From positions 4,128,001 to 4,192,000 of the forward strand of contig OZ242318.1 of NCBI GenBank assembly GCA_965208105.1: a stretch of DNA of 64,000 nucleotides, given 5' to 3'. This DNA is from Candidatus Latescibacterota bacterium. GTDB lineage: Bacteria > Latescibacterota > UBA2968 > UBA8231. The notes below the pieces were generated by a model. It was given only the letters and a program-made list of their open reading frames with translations. It did not search any database and had not been told where the DNA came from. Positions 13,889 to 20,844 of the stretch are shown here, piece by piece. Made by a program: the position numbers and the translations under genes. Within the stretch, counting starts at the first letter, position 1, and each line of letters starts with the position of its first letter.

Positions 13889-14236
13889 ATGAGTGCGGAA
13901 AATACCGGGGCTGAAATCAGGCGCCACATATTCATTTGCGCCACCCCGACCAAGCCCAAGTGCCACGCCGATGACACCGGCAGGGAATGCTGGGAGTACC
14001 TCAAAAAGCGTCTGCGCGAGTTGGGCTACGGAGAGCCGCGCAAGGACGGGATCCATCGCACCAAGGCCGACTGTCTGCGGGTGTGCGAGAGGGGCCCGAC
14101 GGTGGTGGTCTATCCGGAAGGGGTGTGGTACCATTCGATGACCGTCGAAAAGCTGGAGAGGATCATACAGGAGCACCTCATCGGGGGCCGGGTCGTAGAG
14201 GCATTCCTCAACCGCGAACCCTTCCGAAGTTTCTGA
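13889..14236 (+). CDS. Thioredoxin-like [2Fe-2S] ferredoxin
   Basis: [33 protein letters not shown]; GAGGAG RBS before ATG 13889. Confidence 0.88.
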
Positions 14237-14247
14237 CCGGGCGCGAT

Positions 14248-15246
14248 TTGCTCTGTAACCCGACAGTGCGCCGCCCATTGACCCTGGAGGCCGCCGCGGC
14301 GGAGAGCCCGGCCGACGAATTCGCCCGAGACGTAGGAACCGGGTTGAGAGCCTCCCCCAAGCGGCTTTCCTGCCGCTTTTTCTACGACAGGGACGGGTCC
14401 CGGCTGTTTGAGCTGATCTGCGACCTGCCCGAATATTACCTCACCCGCACAGAGCGCCGGATCCTCCAGGAGAGGGCTGTCCAGATCGTTTGCCAGGCCC
14501 CGGTGGATACCACCCTGGTCGAGCTGGGCAGCGGCAGCGCGGTGAAGACGCGGGTGCTTATCGAAGCCTTCCTGGAGCGCCGGGGGAGGTTGCTTTTCGC
14601 GGCCGTGGATATTTCTCCCACCGCTCTCGAGGAAAGCTCCGTCGAGCTCCTGGATCTCTATCCGAATCTGCAAGTCCTGACCGTGGCAGCGGAATACCGC
14701 CAGGGACTCGACCGGCTCCGCGAGATTTTGAGCGGCCCGAAGCTGATCCTCTTCCTGGGGTCCAACATCGGAAATTTCGAACGTCCTGATGCAGTCCTGT
14801 TCCTCAAGCTCGTGCGCCGCACCTTGACCCCGCTTGACCGCCTGCTGGTCGGCATCGATCTGCGCAAGGAGCGGGAGGTGCTGGAGGCGGCCTACGACGA
14901 TCCCCGGGGCATAACCGCCCGCTTCAATCAGAACATCCTGGCCAGAATCAATCGCGAACTGGGTGGACGATTCGACTTGGAGACCTTCAGGCACCGCGCC
15001 ATCTACAACGAGGAAGAAGGCCGGGTGGAGATGTTCCTCGTGAGCACCTGCGCCCAGAAAGTGGCCATCGAAGACCTGGGCATGGAGGTGGGATTCGCCG
15101 AGGGAGAGGCCATTCACTCGGAGAATTCCTACAAGTACTCGACCGCGGAGATCGATGAGCTGGCTGCAGCATCCGGGCTCGCCATCCAGCGCCAGTGGTT
15201 CGACGGCGCCAGGCGCTTCAGCCTGAATCTGTTGAAACCCGGTTAG
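14248..15246 (+). CDS. egtD: L-histidine N-alpha-methyltransferase (hercynine synthase)
   Basis: PKRLSCRFFYD.DGSRLFE.IC.LPEYYLTRTE, ELGSGSAVKT, FLGSNIGNF, AAYDDPRGITARFN, IHSENSYKY; start uncertain (TTG 14248 or GTG 14266). Confidence 0.93.
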   Translation: MLCNPTVRRPLTLEAAAAESPADEFARDVGTGLRASPKRLSCRFFYDRDGSRLFELICDLPEYYLTRTERRILQERAVQIVCQAPVDTTLVELGSGSAVKTRVLIEAFLERRGRLLFAAVDISPTALEESSVELLDLYPNLQVLTVAAEYRQGLDRLREILSGPKLILFLGSNIGNFERPDAVLFLKLVRRTLTPLDRLLVGIDLRKEREVLEAAYDDPRGITARFNQNILARINRELGGRFDLETFRHRAIYNEEEGRVEMFLVSTCAQKVAIEDLGMEVGFAEGEAIHSENSYKYSTAEIDELAAASGLAIQRQWFDGARRFSLNLLKPG

Positions 15247-15473: not shown

Positions 15474-16793
15474 ATGAATTCGTCCTTGAGCGCGGCGGTA
15501 TCCCCTTCGCGGCTGGCGGAGTGGGTGTGCGATGCGCGCGAACGAACCTTCGAGTTGGTCGCCGATCTGAGCGATGAACAGCTCATGGGGCCGCGGTTGG
15601 AAATCGTCAATCCCCTGCTCTGGGAAGTAGGTCACCTCGCCTGGTTTCAGTCCAGGTGGGTGCTGCGGCACGCCTGCGGCCAGCAGCCGGTGCGCGCCGA
15701 CGAAGATCAGCTCTACGACTCCATAGCCATCGGCCACGACAGGCGCTGGGACCTTCCTCTGCCGGCGCGTTGCGAGACTTTGGCCTACGGCCGCCAGGTT
15801 CGGGACCGGGTCCTGCACCGCGTCGAGCTGGGGGACCTCGACGACGAGTTGATCTATCACCTTGTCTACACCACCCTCCATGAGGATATGCACGCCGAGG
15901 CCTTCACTTACACCCGGCAGACCCTGGGATATCCGGCGCCGGGCCTTTCCATTGTCGGCCAGCGGGAAGCCGGATTGGAAGGCGGCGGATCGCTGAAAGG
16001 AGACGCGGAGATTGCGGGTGGGCGGTTCGGTCTCGGCTCGGATCCGGAGGAATCATTTGTATTTGACAACGAGAAGTGGGTTCATCCAGTGGAGGTGGGA
16101 CCTTTCGCCATGGCGAGGGCGGCGGTGACACAGGAAGAGTTTGCCGCTTTCGTGGACGACGGAGGGTACGGGCTGCGCCAATGGTGGAGCCCGGAGGGAT
16201 GGCGCTGGCGCCGATCCGCCGGCGCGGAGCATCCGCTCTACTGGAAGCGGCTGAGCAAGGGGAGGTGGCTGCGCCGGCACTTTGACCGGTGGGTCGGACT
16301 CGAACCGCATCTGCCGGCCATTCACGTCAACTGGTACGAAGCCGAGGCCTATTGCCGCTGGGCGGGCCGCCGCCTGCCCAGTGAGGCAGAGTGGGAGATG
16401 GCCGCGGCCTCGGCCCCCGCCGGACCAGGCTGCAATCAACCCAAGCGACGGTTCCCATGGGGCGAAGAGGAGCCCTGTGCCGGGCGCGCCAATCTTGATT
16501 GGAAGGCCATGGGCTGCGTCGATGTCGGAGCCTTTCCCGCGGGAGACAGTGGTTTCGGATGCCGGCAGATGATCGGCAATCTCTGGGAGTGGACGGGCAG
16601 CACCTTTCTCCCTTATCCGGGCTTTGCGGCAGACCCATACAGAGAGTACTCGGAGCCGTGGTTCGGGACCCGCAAGGTCATGCGCGGCGGTTGCTGGGCA
16701 ACCCGTTCGCGCCTCATTCGCAGCAACTACAGGAACTTTCAGACTCCGGACCGGCGCGATATATTGGTGGGATTCCGCACCTGCGCAGCCTGA
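15474..16793 (+). CDS. senA: Selenoneine synthase SenA (EgtB-family non-heme iron enzyme, DinB + FGE-sulfatase domains)
   Basis: IVNPLLWEVGHLAWFQ, LYDS..GHDRRWDLPL, iron motif HEDMH (EgtB usually HEQQH, OvoA HERIH), FDNE, RLPSEAEWE, GNLWEW, YSEPWFG, YRNF..GFR; directly upstream of a SenB-type glycosyltransferase. Confidence 0.82.
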   Translation: MNSSLSAAVSPSRLAEWVCDARERTFELVADLSDEQLMGPRLEIVNPLLWEVGHLAWFQSRWVLRHACGQQPVRADEDQLYDSIAIGHDRRWDLPLPARCETLAYGRQVRDRVLHRVELGDLDDELIYHLVYTTLHEDMHAEAFTYTRQTLGYPAPGLSIVGQREAGLEGGGSLKGDAEIAGGRFGLGSDPEESFVFDNEKWVHPVEVGPFAMARAAVTQEEFAAFVDDGGYGLRQWWSPEGWRWRRSAGAEHPLYWKRLSKGRWLRRHFDRWVGLEPHLPAIHVNWYEAEAYCRWAGRRLPSEAEWEMAAASAPAGPGCNQPKRRFPWGEEEPCAGRANLDWKAMGCVDVGAFPAGDSGFGCRQMIGNLWEWTGSTFLPYPGFAADPYREYSEPWFGTRKVMRGGCWATRSRLIRSNYRNFQTPDRRDILVGFRTCAA

Positions 16794-16804
16794 GGGAATG
16801 GACA

Positions 16805-17761
16805 ATGAAAATTTTTCTGGCCACGCCTGCCCCGGCCTACTCGCGCAAGGGCAACCGGGTGACGGCGCTGCGTTGGGCGCGCCTTCTGCGCAAGCTGGGA
16901 CACCGGGTGGTGGTCGCGCAGGAGTATGAAGAGCAGTCATGCGACCTGCTGGTCGCCCTGCACGCTCGCCGCAGCCGCCGTTCGATGCTGCGTTACAGGC
17001 GCCGCTATCCCGACCGGCCTCTGGTGCTGGCCCTGACAGGCACGGATCTCTACGGGGATATTCACAGCCATGCCGGGACGCGCCAGGCTCTGGAACTGCC
17101 CTCGCGCTTTATCGTGCTGCAGCCCGAGGGAATCGCCGAGCTGCCGCCGCATCTGCAGGGCAGGGCGCGCGTCATCTTTCAGTCGGTGAGACCGCCTCCG
17201 GGGGTCTTTCCACCAAGGGAGAATCAGTTCGAGGTCTGCGTGCTGGGACACCTGCGTCCGGTAAAGGACCCTTTTCGCACCGCCGGGGCAACTTGGTGAT
17301 TGCCCGGGTCTTCGCGCATCCGTGTGGTGCACGTGGGGGCCGCCCTCAATGCGGAAATGCGGGAACGCGCACTTGCCGAAACGGCTGCCAATCCGCGCTA
17401 CGTGTGGCTGGGAGAGCTGCCGCGCTGGCGCGCCCTGCGGCTGCTTGCGCGCAGCCGGCTGCTGGCGCTCACCTCGCGCCTGGAGGGTGGCGCCAACGCG
17501 GTTTCCGAGGCCCTGGCCTGCTCTGTCCCCGTGATATCTTCGCAAATCTCGGGGTCCATCGGGTTGCTGGGACCGGACTACCCTGGTTATTTTCCGGTGG
17601 GAGACACCCGGGCTCTGGCGGACCTGCTGGAGCGGGCGGAAACCCAGGTCGGGTTCTACGAAGACCTGAAATCGCGCTGCGCCAACTTGAGGTCCCTGGT
17701 GGACCCGTGCCGCGAGCGCCGGTCATGGCAGAGATTGCTGGCCGAACTGGCAGCGCAATGA
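16805..17761 (+). CDS. senB: Selenosugar synthase SenB (TIGR04348-type glycosyltransferase) interrupted by an in-frame TGA at 17297-17299 (recoded or pseudogene)
   Basis: MKIFLATPAP..SRKGNRVTALRWA, ALHARRS, LTGTDLY, GHLRPVKDPF, stop, then same frame LPGSSRIRVVHVG..SRLEGGANAVSEA..GLLGPDYPGYF; 319 codons in total. Confidence 0.85.
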
Positions 17762-17798
17762 AGCGATAATTTCCAACCTCGAAAAGTGGAGAGTTTCC

Positions 17799-18503
17799 AT
17801 GGTTCCAGTGGCCGAAAAACGATTTGGGCACCCGAGTGACTGCCCGTTGTTCAGGGGAATAAGCCAGGAGGGGCTAGAGGAATTGGGACACATCGCCGCA
17901 CCGGTGAAGCTCGAGCCGCAGGAACGGCTGCTCACCGATCCTGAGCACTCGCGGGAGATCTGGATGATCAAGGAAGGACTGGTGAGCCTGATCTACGGCG
18001 ACGCCGAGGGCAGGGATGCGACGGTCATGCTGCTCGATGCCGGCGACCTGTTTGGCGCCATCGGGTGGCAGGAAAGGCTCGACTACAGTCAGAACGTGGT
18101 TGCCCTCAAGCCCACTGTCCTGTGGAGGATGATGCAGCAGCAGATGGAGAATCTTTTCAACAAATATCCCGTTCTGGGCTACCGGATAACCCAATTTTCC
18201 TGGCGTCGCATTGCGCGTCTCGAGCAGCGCCTGGCCGAACTGATGACAAAGTCGGTCAGGGTGCGTCTGGCCTCCCTGCTGCTCAATCTGGCGGCCGACT
18301 ACGGTGAGGACAAGGCCGAGGGGATACGATCGCTGGGTCTGACCGTTACCCATGACGACCTCTCCCGCCTTGTGGGGTCCAGCCGGGAAATGGTGAGCAA
18401 GATCGTCGGGCAGTTTCGCGACGCGGGCTGGATAAATTCTTCCAGGAAGAGAATAGAGTTGACTAACCGAAAGGTTCTCCAGGAGATTGCCGGAGGCCAT
18501 TGA
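17799..18503 (+). CDS. CRP/FNR-family transcriptional regulator
   Basis: cNMP-like beta-roll (GLVSL..GDLFG), VRVRLASLLL, HTH THDDLSRLVGSSREMVSK. Confidence 0.92.
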   Translation: MVPVAEKRFGHPSDCPLFRGISQEGLEELGHIAAPVKLEPQERLLTDPEHSREIWMIKEGLVSLIYGDAEGRDATVMLLDAGDLFGAIGWQERLDYSQNVVALKPTVLWRMMQQQMENLFNKYPVLGYRITQFSWRRIARLEQRLAELMTKSVRVRLASLLLNLAADYGEDKAEGIRSLGLTVTHDDLSRLVGSSREMVSKIVGQFRDAGWINSSRKRIELTNRKVLQEIAGGH

Positions 18504-19329: not shown

Positions 19330-20844
19330 ATGAAATTGAAGCGTTGCTCCGTTGCCCCTGTGCTGATGGCAGCCTGGTGGTCTGCGATGCCGGCCGCCGC
19401 GGCGGCGCCCGAGGTAAGGATCGGGTCCAAGAGTTTCACCGAGTCGGTGATTCTGGGTGAAATAGTTGGCCATCTCGTCGAATCCGCAGGAGGCCGGCCG
19501 CTGCACAAGCGCGAACTCGGAGGGACGAGAGTTTTGTGGAATGCCCTCCGGCGCGGAGACATCGACGTTTACCCCGAGTACAGCGGAACCATCAGCCAGG
19601 AGATCTTTGCGGGCAGGGGGCTCCACGGCGATGATGCCGTGCGCAATGCGCTTGCGGCCATGAGCATCCAGGTCAGCCGTCCCTTCGGCTTCAACAACAC
19701 CTACGCCATCGGGATGAGAGCGGACGTGGCAGACCGCCTGGGCATCGGCAAAATTTCGGACCTGATCCGCCATCCCGACCTCGAGTTCGGATTCAGTAAC
19801 GAGTTCATGGATCGAGGCGACGGTTGGCCTAGCCTGCGGCAGCTCTACGGGCTTCCCCAGCTCGAGGTGCATGGTCTGGACCACGATCTGGCCTACCGCG
19901 GTCTGGAAAGCGGTTCGATCCACGTTACCGACCTCTACTCCACCGACGCCGAAATTCGCTACTACGATTTGCGCGTCCTGGAGGACGACCGCGGTCACTT
20001 TCCCGCTTACAACGGAGTGCTCCTCTATCGAACCGATTTGCAGGAGCGCGCTCCGGAAGTGGTGGATGCTTTGTTGAAAATGGAAGGTCGGATTTCGGCT
20101 GCCGCCATGGTGGAGATGAATGCGCGGGCGAAATTGGAGAAGGTGCCGGAGAACCGGGTGGCAGCCGATTTCGCGACTTCAAATCTGGCAGTGAAGGCCA
20201 GGGTCCGAGACGAGGGAACGGCGATGCGCCTGCTGCGTTGGACCGGGGAGCACCTGCTTCTGGTGTGCATCTCACTGAGTGGCGCGGTCGCCGTTGCCGT
20301 CCCATTGGGCATCATGGCGGCGCGCTGGACCCGGGGCGGCCAGCTGATCCTGGGCTGCGTCGGGGTCATGCAGACGATTCCGGCGCTGGCGCTGCTCGTC
20401 CTCATGATTCCTCTGCTGGGCATCGGAGGTCCTCCCGCCCTGGCGGCGCTTTTCCTCTACAGCCTGTTGCCCATCGTGCGCAACACCTGTGCGGGGTTGC
20501 AGGACATCCCGGTGCAGATCCGGGAGTCGGCCGCTGCTCTGGGGTTGCCCTCGAAGACGCGCCTGCGGCTGGTGGAGTTGCCCCTGGCTTCGCGCTCCAT
20601 CGTGGCGGGGATCAAGACCGCGGCGGTGATCAACGTGGGCTTCGCCACTTTGGGAGCCCTGATAGGGGCCGGAGGCCTGGGACAGCCGATTCTCACCGGT
20701 ATCAGGCTTGACGACGTCGGATTGATCCTGCAGGGGGCGGTTCCCGCGGCTTTGCTTGCCCTCGCCGTGCAGGGATTGTTTGAATGGGTGGAGAAGTTTC
20801 TGGTGCCGAAGGGACTTCGCCTGAAGGGGGAGGTTGACTCGTGA
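19330..20844 (+). CDS. Fused substrate-binding + permease subunit of a betaine/ergothioneine-type ABC importer (OpuBC/EgtU-like)
   Basis: Signal peptide; IGSKSFTE, YPEYSGT, GFNNTYA, EFMDRGDG, DLYSTDA, FPAY; C-terminal permease QTIPALAL, LYSLLPIVRNT, ESAAALGL, LIGAGGLG. Confidence 0.92.
   Translation: MKLKRCSVAPVLMAAWWSAMPAAAAAPEVRIGSKSFTESVILGEIVGHLVESAGGRPLHKRELGGTRVLWNALRRGDIDVYPEYSGTISQEIFAGRGLHGDDAVRNALAAMSIQVSRPFGFNNTYAIGMRADVADRLGIGKISDLIRHPDLEFGFSNEFMDRGDGWPSLRQLYGLPQLEVHGLDHDLAYRGLESGSIHVTDLYSTDAEIRYYDLRVLEDDRGHFPAYNGVLLYRTDLQERAPEVVDALLKMEGRISAAAMVEMNARAKLEKVPENRVAADFATSNLAVKARVRDEGTAMRLLRWTGEHLLLVCISLSGAVAVAVPLGIMAARWTRGGQLILGCVGVMQTIPALALLVLMIPLLGIGGPPALAALFLYSLLPIVRNTCAGLQDIPVQIRESAAALGLPSKTRLRLVELPLASRSIVAGIKTAAVINVGFATLGALIGAGGLGQPILTGIRLDDVGLILQGAVPAALLALAVQGLFEWVEKFLVPKGLRLKGEVDS

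Follow-up and report, generated by a model that had tools for sequence, protein, structure and literature searches.

A UGA codon within the selenosugar synthase gene senB of a sponge-associated Latescibacterota bacterium is probably decoded as selenocysteine

In the window, by which we mean the whole 64,000-nt stretch of DNA analyzed here, the gene for the selenosugar synthase SenB contains a single in-frame UGA at codon 165 that is probably decoded as selenocysteine (Sec). The identity of the inserted residue as Sec and not some other amino acid, the efficiency of its insertion and a coupling of SenB synthesis to the selenium supply are all inferences. A preliminary description of this DNA had considered a CGA to TGA nonsense change at least as likely. 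That weighting has shifted: Sec decoding now appears more likely than a nonsense mutation because the TGA is kept among strains, the genome carries the Sec genes, senB shows purifying selection and Cys occupies this position in the closest relatives.

The sen genes lie on the forward strand of the window, in the single 4.85-Mb contig that makes up the genome (G000) of the host, a sponge-associated bacterium:

13987-15246, + strand, egtD-type histidine N-alpha-methyltransferase (TIGR03438, 350.5 bits; PF10017)
15474-16793, + strand, senA (selenoneine synthase), intact (NF041186, 504.2 bits, cut-off 420)
16805-17761, + strand, senB for selenosugar synthase; 318 codons and a terminal stop, with one internal TGA read through
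17297-17299, + strand, in-frame TGA, proposed Sec codon, senB codon 165, context ATW*LPGSS
17799-18503, + strand, Crp/Fnr-family regulator directly 3´ of senB (PF13545 and PF00027)

With egtD preceding senA and a gap of 11 nt between the end of senA and the start of senB, senB runs in one frame from the ATG at 16805 to the terminal TGA at 17759-17761. The preliminary description had reported a frame intact around the single TGA and free of frameshifts, and we confirm this. When read through the TGA, the protein scores 387.3 bits against TIGR04348 (cut-off 300), covering profile positions 1-309 of 310, and it matches the Variovorax paradoxus SenB structures 8JJN/8FBX with a phmmer E value of 2e-56. 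K158, N20/T23/E231 and the EGGAHV motif of the V. paradoxus enzyme are defined in the part of the source available to us (PMC10891094). In the alignment, K154 of the window SenB corresponds to the catalytic Lys K158 and N17/T20 to N20/T23, while the sugar motif reads E227-G-G-A-N-A (EGGAN, residues 227-231). The protein is predicted, as a member of this family, to form a selenosugar from selenophosphate and a UDP-sugar. SenB is the entry step to selenoneine, and we know of no other Se-glycosyltransferase.

Two neighboring genes have features of their own. The egtD ORF as listed begins with an Arg/Gly/Pro-rich extension of 110 residues without a profile match (13987-14320), and since the profile match begins at residue 112, the true start is probably further downstream. 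Three genes past senB, positions 19330-20844 encode an OpuAC substrate-binding domain fused to an ABC permease, a betaine-type transporter that presumably resembles the ergothioneine transporter EgtU and whose substrates could be hercynine, ergothioneine or selenoneine-like betaines.

Under the Sec reading, SelB carrying Sec-tRNA(Sec) would bind a hairpin at 17307-17341 and outcompete RF2 at the UGA, giving full-length SenB with Sec in a surface loop between the first helix and the second strand of the C-terminal Rossmann domain. When charged Sec-tRNA is lacking, translation would stop after 164 residues, and the product would be devoid of the UDP-sugar-binding half that contains EGGAN.

We examined the TGA in public sequencing data, where runs of 10 studies contain the stretch, and compared four runs (X1, X4, X5 and X6) over 1201 bases. 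X1 is identical to the window and is probably the source run; the other three are sponge and marine metagenomes from three other studies. The X4, X5 and X6 contigs (depths 8 to 15) span the site and each differ from the window at 12-14 positions (~1% divergence), without indels and with codon 17297-17299 the same as in the window. At least three further haplotypes are thus fixed for the TGA, and because the contigs from three other studies keep it, it is not an assembly artifact, which the preliminary description had thought at least as likely. While the low depth of the source run (4.9) would fit a sequencing or assembly error, with a sense codon as the true codon 165, the recurrence of the TGA in better-covered contigs that differ elsewhere leaves this explanation with next to no probability. 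The RNA runs X19 and X20 contain small shares of the stretch only.

The differences among the TGA-bearing haplotypes also report on selection. There are 20 variant sites, 11 nonsynonymous and 9 synonymous; 5 synonymous and 5 nonsynonymous sites precede the TGA, and 4 and 6, respectively, follow it. At none of the 11 nonsynonymous sites does the most common residue of the column exceed a frequency of 0.58 (mean 0.32), whereas the mean conservation for all possible nonsynonymous changes of senB is 0.68; 0 of 20000 permutations against this null were as low (P<5e-5). The downstream half alone (6 sites) gave P=1e-4 and the upstream half alone (5 sites) P=0.005. The 9 synonymous changes, in contrast, affect codons that are conserved (mean 0.85; Mann-Whitney P=1.8e-4). 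This pattern is a signature of purifying selection on both senB halves after the TGA arose, which argues that the downstream half is translated in frame. Relaxed selection downstream, the prospect raised against Sec decoding in the preliminary description, is therefore not what the downstream test points to.

These observations have to be weighed against the possibility that a Cys (or Tyr) codon recently mutated to TGA and that senB is a young pseudogene with an incidental hairpin, an explanation we regard as unlikely. It would require either that chance kept the nonsynonymous changes away from conserved columns both before and after the TGA or that the allele spread by short recombination tracts. 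The gene also lacks a second lesion, as no further stop or frameshift was found in the 153 downstream codons of any haplotype, and the G000 SenB retains 111 of 113 highly conserved residues. A relative-rate test with five outgroups, which has low power for a young lesion, gave no acceleration of G000 SenB over that of G001, a genome of the same genus. Favoring a pseudogene, on the other hand, dN/dS is higher among strains (0.46) than for the long-term G000-G001 comparison (0.19), so some relaxation is possible, and the senB of another genome, G011, is frameshifted, so the gene can decay. We did not use the dN/dS values of the two halves between G000 and G001 (0.12 and 0.30) as evidence because they mostly reflect the time before the TGA arose. 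The distribution of the variants can be counted on the same side: all 20 are inside senB and none are in the 244 flanking bases (16700-16804 and 17762-17900), where ~5 would be expected with even spread. This clustering could reflect higher diversity, some relaxation, or chance in a small sample.

Codon 165 was then compared across SenB proteins. The set of 189 sequences comprised 29 from relatives and the phylum, 80 genome_contigs loci and 80 metagenome_contigs loci; the frameshifted G011 and truncated G164 genes were left out, and after trimming to 345 residues and merging, 159 distinct sequences remained. The omitted G011 copy (L038, G011:C45) matches SenB in two frames, over residues 1-229 in one and 229-316 in the other, a frameshift that marks either gene decay or an indel introduced by assembly. 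Column 165 is variable, with Leu in 90, Arg in 21, Gln in 9, His in 6, Ser in 5, Tyr in 4 and Cys in none of the 159; the aligned V. paradoxus residue is Leu. The TGA occurs at this column in the window alone (1/159), so that conservation is seen across strains, in the three other haplotypes, and not across species. Both the restriction to one species and the variability of the column are as expected for a recent nonsense mutation.

The nearest sequences provide a different picture. In the SenB tree, the window's clade has Tyr165 in three members and Arg in one, and codon 165 of G001 (84% identical) is TAT. A protein search identified P0004, from a strain of the sister species, with Cys165 and its other 317 residues identical to the Tyr165 forms P0124 and P0126 (G001's protein). 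Cys165 is also present in P0006 (72% identical), while P0005 (82% identical) has Leu165. The Cys of P0004 is not a placeholder for U because the exact Cys-bearing sequence is in the collection. The best metagenome-contig match sought as a closer relative was 69% identical and thus gave no intermediate. The expectation in the preliminary description that homologues have Arg or Leu, not Cys, hence holds for the family at large but fails for P0004 and P0006. Judging from these sequences, three states of codon 165 occur within the genus: Tyr (TAT), a Cys codon and TGA, which would be the classical Sec/Cys relationship. A nonsense mutation could have arisen by this step as well, as a Cys codon, TGT or TGC, is a single change from TGA; the relatives' Cys is known from protein sequence. 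In an AF2 model of SenB (pLDDT 93.9), residue 165 is in a helix-to-strand loop (164-171). General Rossmann-fold geometry would place this loop at a distance from the active-site cleft, which leaves Sec at this position without an evident catalytic purpose.

The host genome encodes the complete machinery for Sec synthesis and insertion, with all four components above curated cut-offs:

selA, host genome, 557.7 bits (cut-off 268)
selB, host genome, 351.5 bits (cut-off 242)
tRNA-Sec (selC), host genome, 69.6 bits (cut-off 47)
selD, G000:C1:3654722, minus strand, 369.5 bits, above its curated cut-off, with one in-frame TGA

A lack of selB or selC, which the preliminary description had named as telling against Sec insertion, was thus not found. 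selB was detected in 20 of 20 genomes tested, in carriers and non-carriers of a TGA-containing senB alike. Family searches in the host identified five further single-TGA genes in known selenoprotein families (one fdhA-like, three AhpC/TSA and one Rdx/SelW), such that at least six UGA-containing selenoprotein genes, including selD, are present besides senB. A genome-wide codon-usage scan for read-through ORFs, in which senB ranked 1192 among 20473 candidates, was without discriminating power. The only clear selD of the genome is located outside the window, with Sec in a CGG-U-ASK motif and a SECIS of 7 pairs and a GGAA loop; no senC-like selD adjoins the sen genes.

The sequence following codon 165 can form two hairpins:

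17307-17341, + strand, candidate SECIS hairpin of 14 pairs with a 2-nt bulge and loop 17321-17325 (or GUGU loop 17322-17325 with a bulged U)
17319-17337, + strand, alternative 8-pair hairpin with GUG loop 17327-17329

The first exists as drawn in the preliminary description, with a GUGU loop at 17322-17325 that begins 22 nt past the UGA. The genome's six own SECIS are hairpins of 6-7 perfect pairs with the loops GGUCU (the fdhA-like gene), GUG, AGUU, GGAUU, GUU and GGAA, which start 20-27 nt past the U of UGA (n=6). The senB loop, CGUGU at +25 to +29 from the same U, resembles these in position and G/U content, whereas the loop of the alternative hairpin at +31 is outside the +20 to +27 range. 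The senB upper stem, which the preliminary description had called weak in GC-rich DNA, has 5 pairs compared to the 6-7 of the six own elements. The minimum free energy (MFE) of 17297-17350 (54 nt) is -19.1 kcal/mol compared to a mean of -19.9 (sd 3.0) for dinucleotide shuffles (z=+0.27), with 109 of the 200 shuffles matching or exceeding its stability. We also ranked the hairpin by a SECIS score devised for this analysis, which is rough since its loop constraint is not strict and one control folded with a wider loop. The hairpin reaches -7.0, at the weak end of the genome's true range (-7.0 to -15.1), a value equalled or bettered by 21.6% of 3000 in-frame sites drawn at random from the genome's long ORFs. 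A hairpin not above chance is what a pseudogene would predict.

Comparison with homologous sites is more favorable. Among the 159 SenB genes, 13.8% reach the window's SECIS score and 6.3% its MFE, so that the window hairpin outranks 86-94% of them, and over the stretch from +10 to +48 (39 nt, distinct from the 54-nt fold) the window value is -17.6 versus -10.5 for G001. Shuffle z-scores are equally uninformative (-1.8 to +1.6, 66-nt stretches) for the well-supported SECIS at SenB column 130 described below; the poor z-score of the window hairpin therefore says little either way. We consider the hairpin compatible with a SECIS and mildly supportive, though not decisive. The base 3´ of the senB TGA is U, a context found in none of the genome's six own Sec sites and none of the four other SenB classes. 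In E. coli, UGA-U terminates translation efficiently.

This context bears on whether low-level UGA read-through by a near-cognate tRNA (e.g. Trp), independent of a SECIS, gives enough full-length SenB. UGA is the leakiest stop codon in bacteria, and such read-through would accommodate both the selection seen on the two halves and the weakness of the hairpin. We nevertheless judge it very unlikely given that UGA-U is a strong termination context, that the host combines a complete Sec system with a compatible hairpin, and that read-through would leave the Cys of the nearest relatives unexplained. Another arrangement would be a two-piece enzyme, in which translation stops at the UGA and restarts at the adjacent codon:

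17300-17302, + strand, TTG, possible re-initiation codon of a 153-aa C-terminal piece (ORF 17300-17761)

The resulting fragments of 164 and 153 aa would have to assemble into active SenB. The TTG adjoins the TGA in frame, the break is in the AF2-model loop 164-171, and purifying selection on both halves fits this arrangement too. The cut, however, is inside the C-terminal Rossmann domain, past its first strand and helix, rather than between domains, and the sole upstream G-rich stretch ends 11 nt before the TTG. Moreover, a split enzyme does not predict the relatives' Cys, a hairpin stronger than those of homologues or the TGA pattern across the family, and we regard it as quite improbable.

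That family pattern extends well beyond the window. Exactly one in-frame stop was found in 28 of the 159 distinct SenB sequences, always TGA and never TAG or TAA, at five columns:

Column 4: TGA in 2; others, Cys in 45; lowest-pair identity 0.83; first strand (AF2 model)
Column 130: TGA in 10; others, Pro 53, Ala 32, Cys 4; lowest-pair identity 0.57; interdomain linker (AF2 model)
Column 145: TGA in 10; others, Cys 133; lowest-pair identity 0.68; strand before the invariant G148-H149 (AF2 model)
Column 165: TGA in 1 (window); others, Leu 90, Arg 21, Cys 0; loop 164-171 (AF2 model)
Column 171: TGA in 5; others, Arg 123, Cys 1; lowest-pair identity 0.57; last residue of loop 164-171 (AF2 model)

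The use of TGA in 28 of 28 cases speaks against decay by nonsense mutation. Cys homologues are present at each of columns 4, 130, 145 and 171, and, judged by the amino acid identities within the classes, the TGAs at these four columns are old and maintained. An alternative genetic code at the TGA-bearing loci was rejected: no in-frame stop was found in 22 HSPs of the adjacent senA (22 of the 28 loci, the other six having no senA in the flank), and TGA is therefore not a general sense codon there.

The column-130 class (L057, L065, L063, L030, L058, L034, L037, L066, L165 and L183; context QSFT-U-PPG) belongs to Latescibacterota families other than the window's, where 8 of the 9 SenB-bearing genomes of a phylum scan have the TGA and the ninth has Cys; Cys forms are represented by L060, L163 and L192. 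A hairpin of 6 pairs, 18-35 nt past the UGA, is paired in 95% of cells, with compensatory double changes at three pairs. Its covariation score was reached by 0 of 500 shuffles, and slid controls pair at 50-68%. On this evidence the column-130 TGA seems to mark a Sec form of SenB that is well supported and, as far as we can tell, has not been described before.

For the column-145 class, found in Poribacteria and allied contigs (L070, L078, L080, L081, L083, L148, L152, L155, L166 and L167), the TGA takes the position of a Cys that is widely conserved in the FEVCVLGH strand, and the hairpin that follows, of no more than 4-5 pairs, lies within conserved LRPVKDP codons. The column-171 TGA (L156, L159, L177, L179, L201 and L202) stands in place of an Arg that is conserved in most sequences and shares its loop with codon 165, and the column-4 TGA is found in L103 and L188. 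Some SenB proteins are part of longer frames: at ~6001-7962 of L156 and L159, SenB and an EgtD-type methyltransferase share one open frame (655 aa), an apparent fusion, and ~640-aa open frames beginning with SenB are present in L108 and L135.

That other lineages carry TGA at four further columns of SenB, the sole enzyme of the operon to use up selenophosphate, lends indirect support to a selenium switch. We propose, tentatively and as a possibility we still find doubtful, that the UGA in senB is a repeatedly evolved translational selenium gate that gives selenoproteins priority over selenoneine. Full-length SenB, which diverts selenophosphate to selenoneine, would be made only when Sec-tRNA(Sec) is charged. 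The position of the Sec would be free because it acts as a gate and not as a catalyst, which would account for at least five columns (4, 130, 145, 165 and 171) that are mostly variable and have no known catalytic role. A gate would also account for the location of all columns in the first 171 of 318 residues and for a senA without such a codon. The chance of five random columns all falling in this part is (171/318)^5, ~0.045, and is weak evidence. U165 of the window would be the youngest origin, its Tyr and Cys precursors surviving in the sister species.

We found no report of a Sec-containing SenB in the literature searched. In the portions of these sources available to us, the V. paradoxus SenB paper (PMC10891094) makes no mention of a Sec form, with the term 'Cys' absent, the discovery preprint (10.1101/2022.04.13.486033) does not contain 'UGA' or 'TGA', and a 2026 review of the prokaryotic selenoproteome (PMC13188914) contains neither SenB nor 'glycosyl'. 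Because gene callers split senB genes with a TGA, selenoneine capacity is probably under-annotated in sponge symbionts and other MAGs. If Latescibacterota, Poribacteria and further uncultured lineages do make SenB as a selenoprotein, the Sec and small-molecule selenium branches would be coupled at translation, and the SenB pattern would represent a testable case for UGA recoding as a nutrient sensor.

The window SenB belongs to the same family as V. paradoxus SenB of the senABC selenoneine pathway (PDB 8JJN, 8JJQ and 8FBX), with the same GT-B fold and a senA neighbor. Unlike the characterized SenB enzymes, which have no UGA, the window senB contains one, and its cluster has no senC, with selD located elsewhere. 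As for E. coli fdhF, there is an in-frame UGA, a 3´-adjacent candidate SECIS hairpin with a G/U apical loop and possibly a bulged U, together with selA, selB, selC and selD. In classical selenoproteins, Sec occupies a single conserved column and serves in redox catalysis, as described in the part of the review available to us (PMC13188914). In contrast, the proposed Sec codon of the window is in a variable loop, and the SenB family would have five Sec columns; Sec at several non-homologous, mostly non-catalytic positions runs against the rule of one catalytic column. Sec-containing SelD offers another parallel: it acts in the selenium pathway and requires Sec-tRNA to be made, as would be the case for SenB. 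Autoregulation through the Sec of SelD has been discussed. While Sec replaces the active-site Cys in that enzyme, the SenB positions are mostly non-catalytic and lineage-specific.
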